DNA of 30,871 nt from a virus: the UHGV virus genome UHGV-0057520, one strand, 5' to 3'. A program made the position numbers and the translations under genes. The notes below the pieces were generated by a model. It had not been told where the DNA came from, did not search any database, and saw only the letters and a list, made by a program, of their open reading frames with translations. This document shows, piece by piece, positions 23,324-30,162 of the stretch. Numbering within the stretch: the first letter of the stretch is position 1; every line of letters begins with the position of its first letter.

Positions 23324-24736
23324 ATGGCTACTTGGCAACAAGGAATCAACTCAGGCGGTTTTCTTGCTGGTATCGGTGGGCAAAACTCAAATGCGCCAAA
23401 GGCAAGTGATGTAAGTGAGGCGTTGGCCTATATTCGCCAGAACAACGAAATGGAGCGTTCAGGTCGCAATAACATCGGCCTTCAGGCGTTGCAGGGACTT
23501 GGTAGTGTCGCTCAAACATATCAAGCCGCAAAGCAACAGGAAGCGGATGCTGCATTCCAAAAAGAATATGCGGCAGCCATCCAGTCAGGCGATCGACAGC
23601 AGGTGCGAGATTTGATGACCAAATATCCTGGTCAATTAGAGAAGATTCAGTCTGGCATGAAGTGGGCAGACGAAGACCAGCGCAACTCTATCGGCACCTT
23701 AGCGGCTGGCGCTCGCCTTGCGGCATCGTCTCCAGAAGCAATGCAATCATGGCTACAAAACAACGCCAAGGAACTGACTCGCGTCGGTGTTGACCCTAAT
23801 AACGTTGCTCAGATGTATCAGCAGAACCCTTCAGGATTTGGTGAGTTTGTTGATCACCTTGGGATGGCTGCGCTTGGTCCGATTGATTACTTCAATGTTC
23901 AGGACAAGATGGCTGGTCGTGAGATTGACCGAGGCGGGCTGGCAGAGACAATCCGCAGCAATCAGGCTGGTGAAGCACTTCAGGCGAGAGGGCAAAACCT
24001 TTCCTATCAGTCAGCAATGACTGGGCACAATATCGCAGCACAACGCTTGGCTCTGGATCAGCAAGAGTTCGGGTTTAAGATGCAGCAAGCGCAGGAAAAG
24101 GCTCAGCAGTTGATTAGCGAAGCACCTAAGCTGTCAGTAAACATGGAAAAAGGCATCGAGACGGCTGTAAACAATGCCACAGCATCATCAAACTCAGCCA
24201 ATTCCATGAGTGCGCTTGCTCAACAGTTCAGAGCAGAAAAACCAACGACCGGCTTGTTCGGTAACGCACAGAACATGTTCGCAAAACTTACCGGAAGCGA
24301 TACGACATTGCGTGATTTGCGCATTCGCCAAAATGCCCTTGTTAACAGTCAGGTTCTTAAATTCCTACCTCCCGGCCCAGCAACGGATAAAGACGTTGAG
24401 ATCGTTCGACAGGGTGCGCCAACTGACATGGATAACCCTGAGACGGTCGCAAGATGGCTTGATGCAATGGCAAACCTTGAGCGACGAAACGCGCAGTTTA
24501 ATGAGTTTAAAGCTGAGTGGATGAGCGCGAATGGCAACCCTGGACAATCGCGTAATGGCGGTCAGATATTGGGGTTGGATGTTAAAAAAGGTGAATCATT
24601 GGGGAGTGCCGTTAAGCGGTATATGTCAATGAATACTGACGCAGCGCCAGCACAAGATTCGACACCTTCAGGAGAACCACGGAATCAGGTTGGATCATAT
24701 ACCTCAAAATCAGGCATTCAATTTACGGTGGAATGA
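23324..24736 (+). CDS. ejection protein, gp20-like
   Basis: 470 aa (P22 gp20 is about 471 aa); assigned by synteny and size. Confidence 0.7.
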
Positions 24737-26580
24737 TGAAAGTAACTGCAAACGGTAAGACATTTACCTTTCCTGATGGTACGAGCACCGAAGATATTGG
24801 CACCGCCATTGATGAGTATTTTGCTGGTCAGGCTGTTCAGCAACAAACAGTTAATCAGGCCAATAATGCACCAACACGGGAAGAACCATCATTGATGCAA
24901 CAAGCTGGCGATTGGCTCACTGGTGGTCAAAGTGCAGGGCAAATTGCGGAACAGGCTGGTCGTGGTCTGGTAAACATACCATTTGACGTATTGCAGGGCG
25001 GCGCAAGTCTGATTAATGCAATCAGCCAGGGGCTTGGTGGCCCCAAGGTTTTGGACGATGTCTATCGTCCAGTCGATCGACCAACAGACCCTTATGCGCA
25101 AGCTGGAGAAACAATTGGCGGGTATTTAGTTCCAGGAGTTGGAACGGCAGGAAGCATGGCTATTGGATCACTGGCAGAGGCCGCAAATCAGAAAGGCGAT
25201 TTCGCACAAAATGCAGCTAAAAATGCCGGAGTTAACCTTGCCGCTCAGGGGGTTCTTTCCGCAGCAGCAAAGGGAATAGGGCGTGGAATAACGGCTATAA
25301 AAGGTGATATTGCGCCAGAAGTGGCGAAGAAAATTGCCACATCAGAATCGATGGGCGTGACACCAATGACATCTGATGTTATCACGCCGAAAAATGCTTT
25401 CACTCGCGGCCTAACTCAGGATGCCGAGGGGGCTTTGCTCGGGACAGGCTCAAAGCGAGCGGAGCAATATGCAACGCGTAGTAAGCTGGTAAGTAATTAT
25501 TTTGACCGTTTTGGTGAGTACAACCCTGATGATGTGGTGAAATCTCTTACCACCACGTTAAGGGGGCGGAAGGATGCCGCTGGCGCTGTTATCAATGACG
25601 TCACCAATAAAATGGGTAATGCCGCAGTTGATACCACAAATACCATGAATGCTCTGAATACAGCGATCGCAAGACAGGAACGGCTTGGGACGTCTGCCAA
25701 TCAAAGCCTGCTTACATCCTTGCGTAACCTACGTGAAGAATTAGCAAACCCTGCAACTGATTTGGATGTTACGTTTGATCTCTTGCGTCAGCACAGAACA
25801 GCATTTAGATCTAATGTTCAGGGAGATGCTATGGTCTTCCCAAACCAGGCAAAAGCAGCTACCAATATGGTAGAGAATGCAATGTCAAAAGATCTTCGTA
25901 ACGCAGTTGCAAAAAACCTCGGTGCATCAGACGCAGCAAAATACCTTAAAGCAAATTCCGATTATGCAAACGTTTATAATAAGGTGCTTAATAAAAACAT
26001 TGCTAACAAGCTCAACAAGGCAAGCAGTGAAGCCAGTCCTGAACTTATAAATACCGTTGTATTAAGCAGAAAACCATCTGACGTGAAACGAATCTGGAGC
26101 GCATTGGATAATAAAGGGAAAGATGCTATGCGTGCAGCTTATGTCAGCAAAATAGCGGAAAAGGCCGGTGACTCTCCAGCCAAGTTCATCACTGAAGTTA
26201 ATAAGCTGAAATCTCAGTCAGGCGGTGAAATTTACAACACTATTTTTTCTGGAAAGCACATGAAAGAGCTTGATTCTCTTCATGAAGTTCTACAGCAAAC
26301 AGCAAGGTCAGACACCGCAAATGTAGTAACTCAGACGGGGCAATCGCAAGCCAACAGGATAAGGACGATTGGCGCAACTGCGACTCTTGGCGTATCAATG
26401 GGGCTTGAGGCTGGTTTCGGTGCAATGATGCGCTTGTATGAGTCAAAAGCAGCAAGGAATGCTCTCTTACGTTTGGCAAACACCAAAGCAGGAACACCAG
26501 CCTATGAAAGAGCGCTAAATAATGCTGCAAATGCGATACGCCCTATACTTTCAAGCCAAATTACAGCAGAACAGCAATAA
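24733..26580 (+). CDS. ejection protein, gp16-like
   Basis: 615 aa (P22 gp16 is about 609 aa); assigned by synteny and size. Confidence 0.7.
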
Positions 26581-26593
26581 AAATAAGATATAA

Positions 26594-27078
26594 CTATCTG
26601 ATATTACTGCTACTGTTGCATGTTACCGTGTTTCCAAATCCTGAATTGCAGTTTGTATATGTGTCAACGCGTGTTGGGTAAGGTTGAGTTATAACAGGCT
26701 GGCGCGCTTTTTGCTCGATCGCTTGCATTGTGTTTACAGCCTGATAATTCAATAAAGCCTGCTGGAATGCTTGGCTTTGTGCTATTTGTTGTGCTTGTTC
26801 TTGGCTTTGTAATTGAACATAAAGATTCTGAAGTTCAAGTCTTGCCTGTGTGTCACTTATCTTGCCTTCATCGACACCTTGCCCGAGCATCTTCGCAGCA
26901 AGGACATACAGCTTAGGTGTTGGTGCTGATGCCATGCGAGAGTCGTTCTTCAAGCTGGCATCAAGGCAATTAGCCATATCGCTAAGCTTTGGATAGCGTT
27001 GCTCGCAACTTGCCTGATAGTCGCTTACTTTTGCGCACCCAGCCAGCAGAAGCGGGATAATTAACAGTGATTTTTTCA
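26594..27078 (-). CDS. lipoprotein, about 161 aa mature-region Gln-rich (candidate exclusion or conversion factor)
   Basis: ORF track 26594..27130; likely start is the ATG at 27076-27078 giving MKKSLLIIPLLLAGC (signal peptide and lipobox); opposite strand to the flanking late genes; Gln-rich helical segment then Cys-containing C-terminus. Confidence 0.6.
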
Positions 27079-27113
27079 TATAATTAACTCTCCTTAGTTT
27101 TGCGCAGGATACC

Positions 27114-27479
27114 ATGAAAAAAGTTAACATTGGAAACGTACCAAAGATGCTCGTTCCGCTCTTTGAGAGCGGTACAATTGTGTTTTGTAGAGACTTTCCA
27201 GAATGGCAACGCCTGCATCAAAAACTTGGCGTTGACGTGCATGACTCGGACGCCAACGGAGCGTCTCATACAATGAGTAGCGAGAATGGTGTTTTGCATG
27301 TGATAGGCGTGTTCAATGGCAAACTATCTACTATTGCCCATGAGTGCGCTCACATGGCATTCGATATCTGCTCAAGGGTAGGTGTTGATGTTGAACCAGG
27401 AAGAGCCAACGAGACTTACTGCTACTTAATGAGCAGGCTTGTTGAGTTCTGCGAGCGACATATCAAAAAGCCGGAGTGA
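27114..27479 (+). CDS. small HExxH protein, possibly ImmA/IrrE-like (M78) zinc metallopeptidase
   Basis: 121 aa; HECAH motif followed about 15 residues later by RANETYCYLM, resembling the HExxH...E.EAN.FA signature of ImmA/IrrE domains as I recall them. Confidence 0.5.
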   Translation: MKKVNIGNVPKMLVPLFESGTIVFCRDFPEWQRLHQKLGVDVHDSDANGASHTMSSENGVLHVIGVFNGKLSTIAHECAHMAFDICSRVGVDVEPGRANETYCYLMSRLVEFCERHIKKPE

Positions 27480-27492
27480 CCCGGCTTGATTA

Positions 27493-27687
27493 TTACTTTT
27501 TGCTGTCTGGAGTTCGCTTATCCAATACCCAGCCATGACCTGGCTTTGTTGTTGGTGGAAGCCTTTCGTTGTCCTTGACGGTTGCAAAATTGTCTTTCTT
27601 ACCGCCGCGTGGGCCAACTTCTTGGTATATTCCGCCGTTTTTTCCTGTGTTTTCACCTGGTTTTTTCGCCATGATATACCTCAACAT
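27493..27687 (-). CDS. small basic Gly/Lys/Pro-rich hypothetical protein, 64 aa
   Basis: ORF downstream of the mnt terminator on the minus strand; low-complexity; no family recognised. Confidence 0.35.
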   Translation of the reverse strand: MLRYIMAKKPGENTGKNGGIYQEVGPRGGKKDNFATVKDNERLPPTTKPGHGWVLDKRTPDSKK

Positions 27688-27763
27688 ACACCCGTTATTG
27701 GGCGATTAAATATTGATCTCATTTTATAAGTAGTCAATATGGCCCAGGTAAATGCAAAAATTA

Positions 27764-27786
27764 ACCCACCTTCAGGTGGGTTTTTT
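27764..27786. terminator. bidirectional rho-independent terminator at the 3' end of mnt
   Basis: ACCCACC-TTCA-GGTGGGT hairpin flanked by AAAAATT upstream and TTTTTTG downstream. Confidence 0.7.
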
Positions 27787-28023
27787 GTACAAATCCTTCA
27801 GCGTATCAAACACCATCTTCTTAACAAGCTCTGACTGCTCATCAGCGATGCGTTCCGCATCGTCTCGATAGCCTGAAATTTTGGATGGCTTTGATACAGC
27901 ATCAGTCACTATCTGAACTAATTCTGAATTAAGAGAGCGGCCATTGGATTTGGCTCGCTGTTTTAGTTTTTCCTTTAATTCGTAAGGTAGCCGCAGATTA
28001 AATTGCGGGTCATCTCTTCCCAT
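27772..28023 (-). CDS. mnt: Mnt repressor (ribbon-helix-helix, P22 immI-type)
   Basis: 83 aa; NGRS.NSEL.QIV.DA.SKPS...GYR.DAER.ADEQSELVKKMVFDTLKDLYKK is near-identical to P22 Mnt as recalled. Confidence 0.85.
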   Translation of the reverse strand: MGRDDPQFNLRLPYELKEKLKQRAKSNGRSLNSELVQIVTDAVSKPSKISGYRDDAERIADEQSELVKKMVFDTLKDLYKKPT

Positions 28024-28087
28024 TCTTGATGCCTCGCTTTTGTGAGTGGATCGGCATCTTATTATCTGCTGATTGCATCCTCAATAA

Positions 28088-28100
28088 GACCACGGTGGTC
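28088..28100. promoter_or_regulatory. Mnt operator-like palindrome (O_mnt), likely overlapping a rightward promoter
   Basis: GACCACGGTGGTC is a perfect 13-bp palindrome sharing the CCACGGTGG core of the P22 mnt operator as recalled; lies between mnt and the tailspike start. Confidence 0.55.
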
Positions 28101-28170
28101 GTATTTTTTTGATTAATAATGCATCACTGCGGCAATGCTGCGGCGATTCCTTGTATCTGGAGCAAATTAA

Positions 28171-30162
28171 ATGACAGACATTACAGCCAATGTTGTAGTG
28201 AGCATGCCTTCGCAACTCTTCACTATGGCGCGTTCTTTTAAAGCCGTAGCTAATGGCAAAATTTATATCGGTAAAATTGACACTGACCCGGTAAATCCTG
28301 ATAACCAGATTCAGGTCTATGTTGAGAACGAAGATGGTTCTCACGTTCCTGTTGCACAGCCAATCGTCATCAATGCCGCTGGGTATCCAGTATATAACGG
28401 ACAGATTGCCAAATTCGTAACTGTGCAAGGCCATTCTATGGCTGTTTATGATGCATGTGGTGCGCAGCAGTTCTATTTTCCAAATGTGCTGAAGTATGAC
28501 CCGGATCAGTTAAGGCAGGAGTTAGCAAGTTCAGGTGATGATCTTGGAGATGCATTAATAGCAGTAAAACAACCATTCACCTTGTCAATAAGAAGGACGC
28601 AGCATCAAAAAAATGCCGAGCACATTAGTGTTAGTGATTTTGGTGCAAAAGGAGACGGCATAACAGATGATACTGTAGCAATTCAAAATGCTATTAATGC
28701 AGTACCAGAAGGGGCTATACTTGGATTTTATGGTGGTGAATTTGTTTTTGATAAGGTTGAATTGCTTAAGCCAATAACATTGGTTGGTGATGCAACGTTA
28801 ATTCACAACGGATTTAGAATAAAATCTAGCAGAATACGATCACTTTTATCTGGTGTTCAGAAATGCAAGGATTACTCCGAGTCTTCAAGAGCATTTTATT
28901 GCTATGCAAATGAAGACCAAAGAGATTATGACGATATTCAGATTTTGTTTAATAGATTTGAAGGTTTCTTTTACTCTACGACATTTGTTGCAAAAAACTA
29001 TTATTTGGAGAATGACCCTAATTCAAGAACTGTCAAAAATACAAAAGTAATAGGATGTACATCAGTTGCTCCTGATTCTGTAAATGCCGGTCATTTTCAA
29101 CATATAGGCGTTACAAATGCTGAAACATCACATAACTCAACTTATGGCGGACAAAATGCAACATCATACAACTTCATTAACCAGAATGGATTTGTAAGGA
29201 TTATAGGAAATTATGACCATAACAATAACTATGGTTCATGTGAGCTTGAGAACTCAATGGTGAGTAACTCAGTCATATCATGTAATACGTTTTCGTCATA
29301 TTTATGGGTGGATGATACAAGCAATGTTACTATTTCTGGAAATACAGTTTCATCAAGGATCAAAGTAACATCGCAAACTGACGATGTTCATAATATAACC
29401 ATATCAGCAAATACCACAAAACGGATTACTATAGAGCAATTTGGAGAATCTCCGACAGGTCTGGTATATGGTGCATTAATTTCCTGTAACACTATTACTG
29501 GCGACAGTGATGGAAGTTCAGACATTTTATGTACGTCACTTGTTACAGGTGAAATTTCATCAAATTATTGTCATGGATCAGAAAAAAATATATCAATTGT
29601 CCGCCTGGATTCTTCTGATATAACTGTTAGAAACAATAAAGGAAACAAAGGATTACTTACAATAAGTAACGATGGTGGGAGGATAATTGAATATGGCAAT
29701 GATTCTATGGTTCTGTCTGGAAGCATAGATAGCAGACATATACATAATTTATTACAACCAGACACATCGTATTTAGATCTACCGGGGAAATATCTGCACG
29801 GAACTAAATATACTGGCAGTATCCCCCCCGGTTCCACAGGAACTGTATCACTTCAAATACCATCAGGGGCAAGCCTTGTTTTCAGGGGTGTTTCTATATG
29901 GGTTCTAATTAGAGATGTTAGCAATAACAATATATCGTCATTCAGAATTGATGGTTCATATAGAGTTGTTGGTGGAAGTGTTGGTCTTAGTTTTGCTGAT
30001 GCTTATTCGAAACTCGGGGTGGATGCAAACTCTATAACAGTGTCAAACAATAACAGCACTTCTGACAATATCAGCATAGCAATTAAAAACACAGATTCAT
30101 CAAAAACCCTTCAGGTTACTGTTATGCCGGAGGTTTCAAGCAGGTTAGGTATTGAGGAATAG
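28171..30162 (+). CDS. tailspike: P22-type head-binding N-terminal domain fused to a different, AT-rich receptor-binding domain
   Basis: 663 aa; first ~110 residues ([11 protein letters not shown]...[20 protein letters not shown]...VLKYDPDQ) match P22 gp9; the rest carries beta-helix/pectate-lyase-like signatures ([18 protein letters not shown]) and is Asn/Ser-rich. Confidence 0.85.

Follow-up and report, generated by a model that had tools for sequence, protein, structure and literature searches.

The question raised by this locus is what an Mnt repressor and its operator control when they stand directly beside a tailspike gene and the genes arc and ant are gone. The whole stretch of DNA analyzed (UHGV-0057520, 30,871 nucleotides, hereafter the window) belonged to a P22-like (Lederbergvirus) prophage of E. 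coli. The segment 27480-28300 was found at 100% identity in several complete E. coli chromosomes, for example those of LD67-1 and IR53017, and at a coverage of at least 80% in 54 of 5426 genomes, these 54 being complete E. coli genomes. A gp16-like DNA-transfer gene was identified at 24733-26580 (PHROG 770, E 1e-279), and the tailspike gene was confirmed as the direct neighbor of mnt at 28171-30162 on the plus strand, encoding a P22-type head-binding domain (Pfam Head_binding, E 4e-66; PHROG tail protein) followed by a pectate-lyase-like receptor-binding part. A lipoprotein-like ORF, hkcC (99% identical to hkcC of HK620) and an ORF59a-like gene were also located upstream, and a spacer of 147 nt (28024-28170) separated mnt from the tailspike gene. 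The absence of arc and ant, which the first-pass annotation had read from the letters, held for the whole window in tblastn: the P22 Ant query had no match anywhere, and the sole match of the P22 Arc query was mnt itself. The mnt cassette was thus placed between the gene 16 homologue and the tailspike gene within the late operon, in a region that contained mnt and genes of unknown function, without arc and ant.

This region is the mnt-only form of the P22-like immI region (“ant moron”), which is situated between gene 16 (DNA transfer) and the tailspike gene, a form known for ST64T, L and ST104 (PMC2629481, Villafane et al. 2008; PMC8022706). The layout of mnt beside the tailspike gene was also annotated in phages ST160, SE1, Gally and vB_EcoP-720R6, and the genome paper of phage L described the same layout and left open whether it was a remnant or had a new function (PMC8022706). 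Published descriptions of the gene arrangement date back to 2008, and the window is one more instance of it.

The mnt gene (27772-28023, minus strand) was identified by ORF and Pfam analysis as encoding a repressor of 83 aa with a ribbon-helix-helix and, C-terminally, a tetramerisation coiled coil, in a Gln6 allele (MGRDDPQFNLRLP...). The N-terminal ribbon-helix-helix was covered by Pfam Arc (PF03869, E 2.8e-22, residues 3-50) and the C-terminal coiled coil by Repressor_Mnt (PF11423, E 2.2e-18, residues 53-80). The protein aligned over its length with the solved Mnt structures 1MNT (residues 3-77, matching 1MNT residues 2-76) and 1QEY (53-83), and with 28 of 31 residues identical to 1QEY in its C-terminus it was predicted to form a tetramer. 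These alignments bore out the presence of an Mnt homologue, but not its earlier description as near-identical to P22 Mnt, since the identity to P22 Mnt was 63/83 (76%). The C-terminal tetramerisation part was nearly identical, and the differences clustered in the DNA-binding N-terminal part. Mnt is a textbook model of DNA reading by a beta-sheet, and according to Knight and Sauer the base-contacting residues of P22 Mnt are reportedly Arg2, His6, Asn8 and Arg10. In the window, Arg2, Asn8 and Arg10 were retained and His6 was replaced by Gln, with which the beta-strand became PQFNLR, exactly that of Arc. As the P22 base-contacting set was not fully kept, the window Mnt belongs to another specificity class, not to another family. 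Engineered specificity changes at residue 6 of Mnt are said to have been described by Youderian et al. in 1983, by Knight and Sauer, and by Silbaq, Ruttenberg and Stormo in 2002, the last under the name “master residue”, and His6 is what we take to be the specificity-switching residue of the engineered mutants. By the account of a citing paper, Knight and Sauer (1989) traced the specificity of Mnt to a short region at its N-terminus, and changing a single Mnt residue is described as altering the preferred bases (PMC1184061). The Mnt proteins of the E. coli phages Gally and vB_EcoP-720R6 were 100% identical to that of the window.

The palindrome first noticed at 28088-28100 was confirmed at this position, and the inverted repeat extended beyond it. 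The core dyad GACCAC-G-GTGGTC (GACCACGGTGGTC, centre 28094) was enclosed in a full dyad AATAAGACCAC-G-GTGGTCGTATT, whose arms of 11 nt span 28083-28093 and 28095-28105, and its centre was 77 nt upstream of the tailspike ATG (28171). The presumed Mnt operator, Omnt, was given a 21-bp span (28084-28104) by analogy with P22 ATAGGTCCACGGTGGACCTAT, and in the alignment this inverted repeat coincided with the P22 operator. The proposed likeness to the P22 operator stood for the common CCACNGTGG core (CCAC-N-GTGG) and failed outside it, where the two differed symmetrically, the half-site being AAGACCAC in the window versus AGGTCCAC in P22. The P22 operator in the strain examined was ATAGGTCCACGGTGGACCTGT, and the left half of the window operator was ATAAGACCAC, the right half in the family consensus being GTGGTCTTAT. 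The pattern match by itself was not significant, with about 0.75 matches expected per window at up to three mismatches. The dyad is regarded as a real site because of its conservation. In 42 distinct related sequences its distance to the mnt ATG was constant, and over 42 distinct orphan-type intergenic sequences the positions -12 to -1 and +1 to +6 were invariant or nearly so (at most 2/42 differed anywhere), the centre base was free (A 8, T 12, G 13, C 9), and the positions +7 to +16, including the T-run of the window, were variable. Read from the sequences, this footprint is that of a dyad protein site with a presumably uncontacted centre, not that of a hairpin. A second operator was found neither in the window nor in the complete 38.7-kb Gally genome at up to four mismatches in the 16 specified bases, and a scan of species-representative genomes with AATAAGACCACNGTGGTC gave 30 matches, all in unrelated taxa and at chance level.

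The palindrome and the T-run (28088-28109) might also act as an intrinsic terminator for rightward transcripts rather than as a protein site, which we consider hardly credible. The plus strand scan did flag a 5-bp stem with a 3-nt loop, then GTATTTTTTT. However, the hairpin was weak (-6.3 kcal/mol, z -1.4), the T-run was limited to the sub-type of the window and variable or absent elsewhere, and variation was confined to the exact centre, the would-be loop positions +1 and -1 being essentially unchanged (in 42/42 and 41/42 sequences). A bidirectional intrinsic terminator was detected at the mnt 3' end (27763-27782; terminator scan; folding -13.9 kcal/mol, z -4.1), which corresponds to tMNT of the HK620 annotation, and a further terminator was detected by scan and folding at 27468-27487.

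Other structures were also found in the spacer. In the leader of the tailspike gene (gene 9), a conserved hairpin at 28127-28143 (plus strand; -12.4 kcal/mol, z -2.5) was paired in 96% of cells in 20 distinct homologues, with changes on both sides at three pairs. As the same hairpin also precedes gene 9 in P22 and HK620, it was assigned to the tailspike leader and not to immI. An extended inverted repeat or stem-loop (GATGCC TCGCTT ... GAGTGG ... GGCATC; 28028-28058, plus strand) was located between the mnt start codon and the -10 hexamer of Pmnt, the promoter of mnt described below; its folding energy was -13.9 kcal/mol as plus strand RNA versus -8.9 kcal/mol as minus strand RNA, and 94% of cells were paired in 12 distinct sequences, with covariation not above that of shuffles. 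As its 5' arm was upstream of the predicted Pmnt start, it was rejected as an mnt mRNA leader from that start. A 28-aa plus strand ORF from 28029 across the operator was rejected as well, since by reading of the alignment it was not conserved in the ST160 type. The Rfam scan of 27400-28400 returned nothing but sub-threshold matches to terminator-like pieces.

For promoters, a simple sigma-70 hexamer matrix (PWM) was adopted, which was approximate; of the two P22 controls, Pant (TTGACA-17-TATATT) was recovered at 15.4 bits and Pmnt (TTGAGA-17-TATCAT) at 12.9 bits. A leftward Pmnt was predicted on the minus strand of the window. Its -35 hexamer TTGAGG (28079-28084) was at the position homologous to P22 TTGAGA and overlapped the operator edge by 1 bp, and its -10 hexamer TAAGAT (28056-28061), after a 17-nt spacer, aligned with P22 TATCAT; together they scored 10.4 bits, in the top 3e-5 of all window positions. 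The start was predicted at about 28047-28050, with a leader of about 25 nt and a Shine-Dalgarno motif GAGG at 28032-28035. Of the 42 distinct intergenic sequences of the orphan type, 40 retained Pmnt at this position. In P22, Pant and Pmnt are divergent, overlapping promoters (PMC2724298). The Pant hexamers had no counterpart in the window, with nothing at the homologous place, and a Pant-like promoter was kept in 0/42 distinct orphan sequences, while three ant-bearing loci of the Gln6 class, described below, had a Pant-like promoter of 11.7 bits. No sigma-70 promoter was found in the spacer by a separate promoter scan, and the best rightward candidate in 28010-28185 (TTTTGT-16-TATTAT) scored 5.3 bits in the PWM, at chance level, and was upstream of the operator. 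The rightward promoter that the first-pass annotation had imagined over the operator, reading straight into the tailspike gene, was therefore not recovered; it was the -35 hexamer of the leftward Pmnt that abutted the operator.

The same annotation had suggested that Mnt could regulate tailspike supply. This could occur by repression of a weak rightward promoter or by a roadblock to late-operon transcription. The distance from the operator to the tailspike ATG (77 nt) and the -10-like TATTAT at 28060-28065 fit such control, and the P22 ant moron has been suggested to affect the amount of late transcription that arrives at gene 9, with a possible role for Mnt and Arc (PMC2629481, citing Adams et al. 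1985). We nevertheless regard it as improbable. No rightward sigma-70 promoter rose above background and both Pant hexamers were lost, and the TATTAT was upstream of the operator, a mirror of the Pmnt -10 region without a -35 hexamer. In addition, the operator-to-tailspike distance in related loci was not fixed (135-148, about 425 or 931 nt), whereas the operator-to-Pmnt geometry was unchanging.

Related loci were collected from IMG/VR by protein and by DNA. The protein-similarity scan returned 80 loci and the DNA-pattern scan with AGACCACNGTGGTCT at least 120; IMG/VR loci are redundant, and these locus counts do not equal independent events. In the protein scan, arc and ant were found in none of 65 loci with a Gln6 Mnt (starting MGRDDPQFNLR), and the dyad was 61 nt from the mnt ATG in all of them. 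At 16 loci with a His6 Mnt (starting MARDDPHFNFR), ant was present in all and the operator GGTCCAC-N-GTGGACC in 12; the 12 P22-like ones carried arc, and loci L070-L073 had only a divergent arc-like ORF. Among the pattern matches listed, 73/120 were chance or unrelated repeats, and at least 47 pattern loci had an adjacent Mnt homologue (38-100% identity), all Gln6. Residue 6 and the operator half-site went together by either direction of ascertainment, protein or DNA pattern: over about 110 related loci, the Gln6 Mnt was paired with GACCAC-N-GTGGTC and the His6 Mnt with GTCCAC-N-GTGGAC. This match may go back to a single evolutionary switch, that is, to one event, and it is thus taken as consistent with the known role of the residue, not as independent proof. 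From the residue-operator match (about 130 loci) and the conservation footprint, Mnt is predicted to bind the adjacent dyad specifically.

Among named phages and prophages, P22, epsilon34, UPF_BP1 and the WL164 prophage were of the His6 class, N7 and the ETEC1730 prophage formed a third operator class, and Midgardsormr38 had a further one. In a second orphan class (Sf101, VSe13) the promoter scaffold was kept, and both the beta-strand (AQFHLR) and the dyad were different. Three loci (L085, L138 and L149) were complete immI of the Gln6 class, in which the AATAAGACCACGGTGGTCTC operator and a TTGACA Pant were accompanied by an arc-like gene and ant. The operator layout ahead of ant in loci of the L085/L138 type was AAGACCAC-N-GTGGTCTT.

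The other proposal of the first-pass annotation was that mnt is a decaying remnant, so that mnt and its operator would be neutral leftovers of the arc/ant deletion, heading for loss as in HK620. HK620 does show such an end state, with only the mnt and ant terminators left, mnt was truncated in two of the 111 Gln6 orphan loci among those listed (L064 and L069), one of these two alleles also having a mutated operator half-site, and the possibility was left open in the phage L paper (PMC8022706). The selection data pointed the other way. The mnt ORF was intact in 108/111 of these loci. Between the window type and the ST160 type, both orphans, dN was 0.048 and dS 0.51 (dN/dS 0.095), and the median dN/dS over 81 pairs was 0.09. 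The half-sites and the positions of the Pmnt hexamers were conserved, while adjacent and central bases varied freely, and the orphan arrangement was common to Mnt lineages down to 60% identity. Neutral decay is accordingly judged very improbable.

A benefit of the retained repressor could lie in immunity. In this explanation, the Mnt of the prophage would act in trans and silence the antirepressor promoter of incoming phages with an operator of the same class, and the lysogen would be protected from antirepressor-driven induction. Strong purifying selection without another target in its own genome calls for a benefit, complete immI of the same class exist (the three loci above), and antirepressors act across prophages (PMC7380047). 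On the other side, other operator classes were used by the P22-like phages and prophages with ant that were examined from E. coli and Salmonella (the His6 class by P22, epsilon34, UPF_BP1 and the WL164 prophage, the third class by N7 and the ETEC1730 prophage). No named ant-carrying phage with the Gln6/AGACCAC operator was found, UPF_BP1, N7, ETEC1730 and Midgardsormr38 being of other classes. L138 is not P22-like, and its nearest relative, an Erwinia phage, is itself of yet another class. No matching target is therefore known in the same hosts, and we consider this immunity possible and rather unlikely, as an extension of the best explanation given below that does not exclude it. Somewhat more doubtful still is the broader reading that the orphan Mnt is a repressor-only defence, in which ant was discarded and the repressor kept against the antirepressors of incoming relatives, and in which the classes (His6/GGTCCAC, Gln6/AGACCAC, N7, Sf101) would record a race of escape and pursuit.

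The explanation that we consider probable is that mnt, Pmnt and Omnt form a selected, self-contained cassette of a distinct specificity class, with the tailspike gene fed by late-operon read-through. Its parts would be mnt, its own leftward sigma-70 promoter Pmnt and a single dyad operator directly against the Pmnt -35 hexamer. The cassette most likely controls only itself and not the tailspike gene: as Pant, the arc operator, arc and ant are absent, the operator would no longer control anything in the rightward direction. The Mnt tetramer is expected to bind the operator, which is centred about 45 nt upstream of the predicted Pmnt start, and because the operator edge overlaps the -35 hexamer by one base, the bound tetramer would touch the promoter. 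Contact with the -35 region may let Mnt hold its production in the lysogen at a fixed level. With Pant gone, negative autoregulation is the simplest outcome that we infer, and at a centre of about -45 the effect could also be neutral or even activating. According to Vershon et al. in 1987, P22 Mnt reportedly raises the activity of Pmnt only indirectly, by shutting off the competing Pant. Since Pant is gone here, the reason for the strict conservation of the operator is not self-evident. For the tailspike gene, transcription is expected to come from the late operon, with antitermination carrying it past the terminators at 27468-27487 and 27763-27782, as in P22, whose tailspike gene is reached by late-operon transcription (PMC2629481).

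Compared to P22, the window encoded an Mnt with the same fold and domain order (ribbon-helix-helix and tetramerisation coiled coil), from a gene whose position between gene 16 and gene 9 and whose orientation were unchanged, and its operator had the same odd-numbered dyad centre, the same CCAC-N-GTGG core and the same geometry relative to the leftward Pmnt -35 hexamer. Differently from P22, residue 6 was Gln instead of His, the outer operator positions were AAGAC instead of AGGTC, symmetrically, and Pant, the arc operator, arc and ant were missing, so that the canonical Mnt target of P22 was not present. ST64T, L, ST104, SE1, ST160, Gally and vB_EcoP-720R6 likewise carry mnt without arc and ant adjoining the tailspike gene, and in these mnt-only phages the Gln6 N-terminus, the operator and the intergenic scaffold were all as in the window. 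The window differed from them in an extra AT-rich 11-12 nt, including the T-run, to the right of the operator and in its flanking cargo genes, and the L/ST64T type had a diverged C-terminal half of Mnt (70% identity overall). HK620 shared hkcC, the ORF59a-like gene, both terminators and the tailspike leader with the window, but had wholly lost mnt and the operator, which are intact in the window. As in the engineered Mnt residue-6 mutants, one changed beta-strand residue went with changed preferred operator bases; unlike them, the pairing in the window is natural, is fixed in a large phage lineage, and is accompanied in each half-site by symmetric changes at two operator positions.

These results change little in phage biology at large, as the arrangement was already published and the same allele is annotated in isolated phages. 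The new element is modest, namely a specificity class, Gln6/AGACCAC, that occurs naturally, and the fact that Pmnt and Omnt were selectively kept when Pant, arc and ant were lost. The question raised in the phage L paper, whether mnt is a remnant or has a new function, becomes answerable on sequence grounds: the gene is under selection and not decaying. The natural residue-6 variant and its matching operator provide a ready-made pair on which the rules drawn from engineered Mnt mutants can be tested. If it were true that the orphan Mnt protects lysogens against foreign antirepressors, this would be a simple new prophage-encoded defence.

In the leader of the tailspike gene, about 30 nt upstream of the ATG, a conserved hairpin (CTGCGGC AAT GCTGCGG) with a folding energy of -12.4 kcal/mol was located at 28127-28143 on the plus strand, and P22 and HK620 likewise carry it before gene 9. 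Among 20 distinct homologues, 96% of the cells were paired and 3 pairs were changed on both sides. The hairpin was deleted in one sub-type, represented by L042. Because the U-run was absent, the reading as a terminator was rejected, and the hairpin may serve as an element for the processing or the stability of the tailspike mRNA.

The stretch that separates the start codon of mnt from the -10 element of Pmnt, its predicted leftward promoter, was also found to contain a long, imperfect inverted repeat (28028-28058). The repeat was kept in every orphan-type locus (mnt adjoining the tailspike gene, without arc and ant), the distant VSe13 included. The plus strand RNA folded better than that of the other strand (-13.9 vs -8.9 kcal/mol), and an invariant U.G pair corresponded to a mismatch on the opposite strand. 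When covariation of the repeat was tested against shuffles, none was above the shuffle level.

An AT-rich insert of about 280 nt was present after the original tailspike ATG in the relatives L023, L034, L051-L055, L060, L064 and L069, where the old start read MTDII followed by a stop, and a new in-frame ORF, which started with MNRRLFFKTLASLS resembling a twin-arginine signal, continued into the head-binding domain. In L031, an IS1-like element with an InsA-like ORF interrupted the tailspike gene at its 5' end, about 200-930 nt to the right of mnt, and this locus is therefore a disabled prophage. In the window, a lipoprotein-like ORF (26594-27130, minus strand; lipobox MKKSLLIIPLLLAGC; PHROG 6067, function unknown) held the place which is occupied by the superinfection-exclusion gene sieA in P22.

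The Mnt homologues in RefSeq phage records (e.g. NC_014900, NC_011802 and NC_004348) and in PHROG 795 were labelled "partition protein ATPase", which for an 83-aa ribbon-helix-helix repressor is an annotation error spreading from record to record. In L070-L073, a P22-type (His6) Mnt was accompanied by a diverged Ant (57% identity), and the P22-type operator was absent throughout the 5-kb locus; these loci are apparently mosaic, the repressor having been separated from its site. An unrelated recurrent 30-mer, ACGAACAAGACCACAGTGGTCTGCTCTTCA, contained the same dyad as the presumed Mnt operator of the window in more than 10 loci among the IMG/VR matches listed (e.g. L099, L100, L124, L165, L170, L175 and L188), with no Mnt homologue in the vicinity. 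In phage N7 (L207) and the E. coli ETEC1730 prophage (L208), in which both arc and ant were present, VARNDPQFNVR was paired with ATAGTAGTAC-G-GTGCTATCAT, and in Sf101 (L240) and VSe13 (L241), which carried an orphan mnt adjoining the tailspike gene, AQFHLRL was paired with GTACCATTTnGGTAT. N7/ETEC1730 and Sf101/VSe13 are additional Mnt/operator classes.
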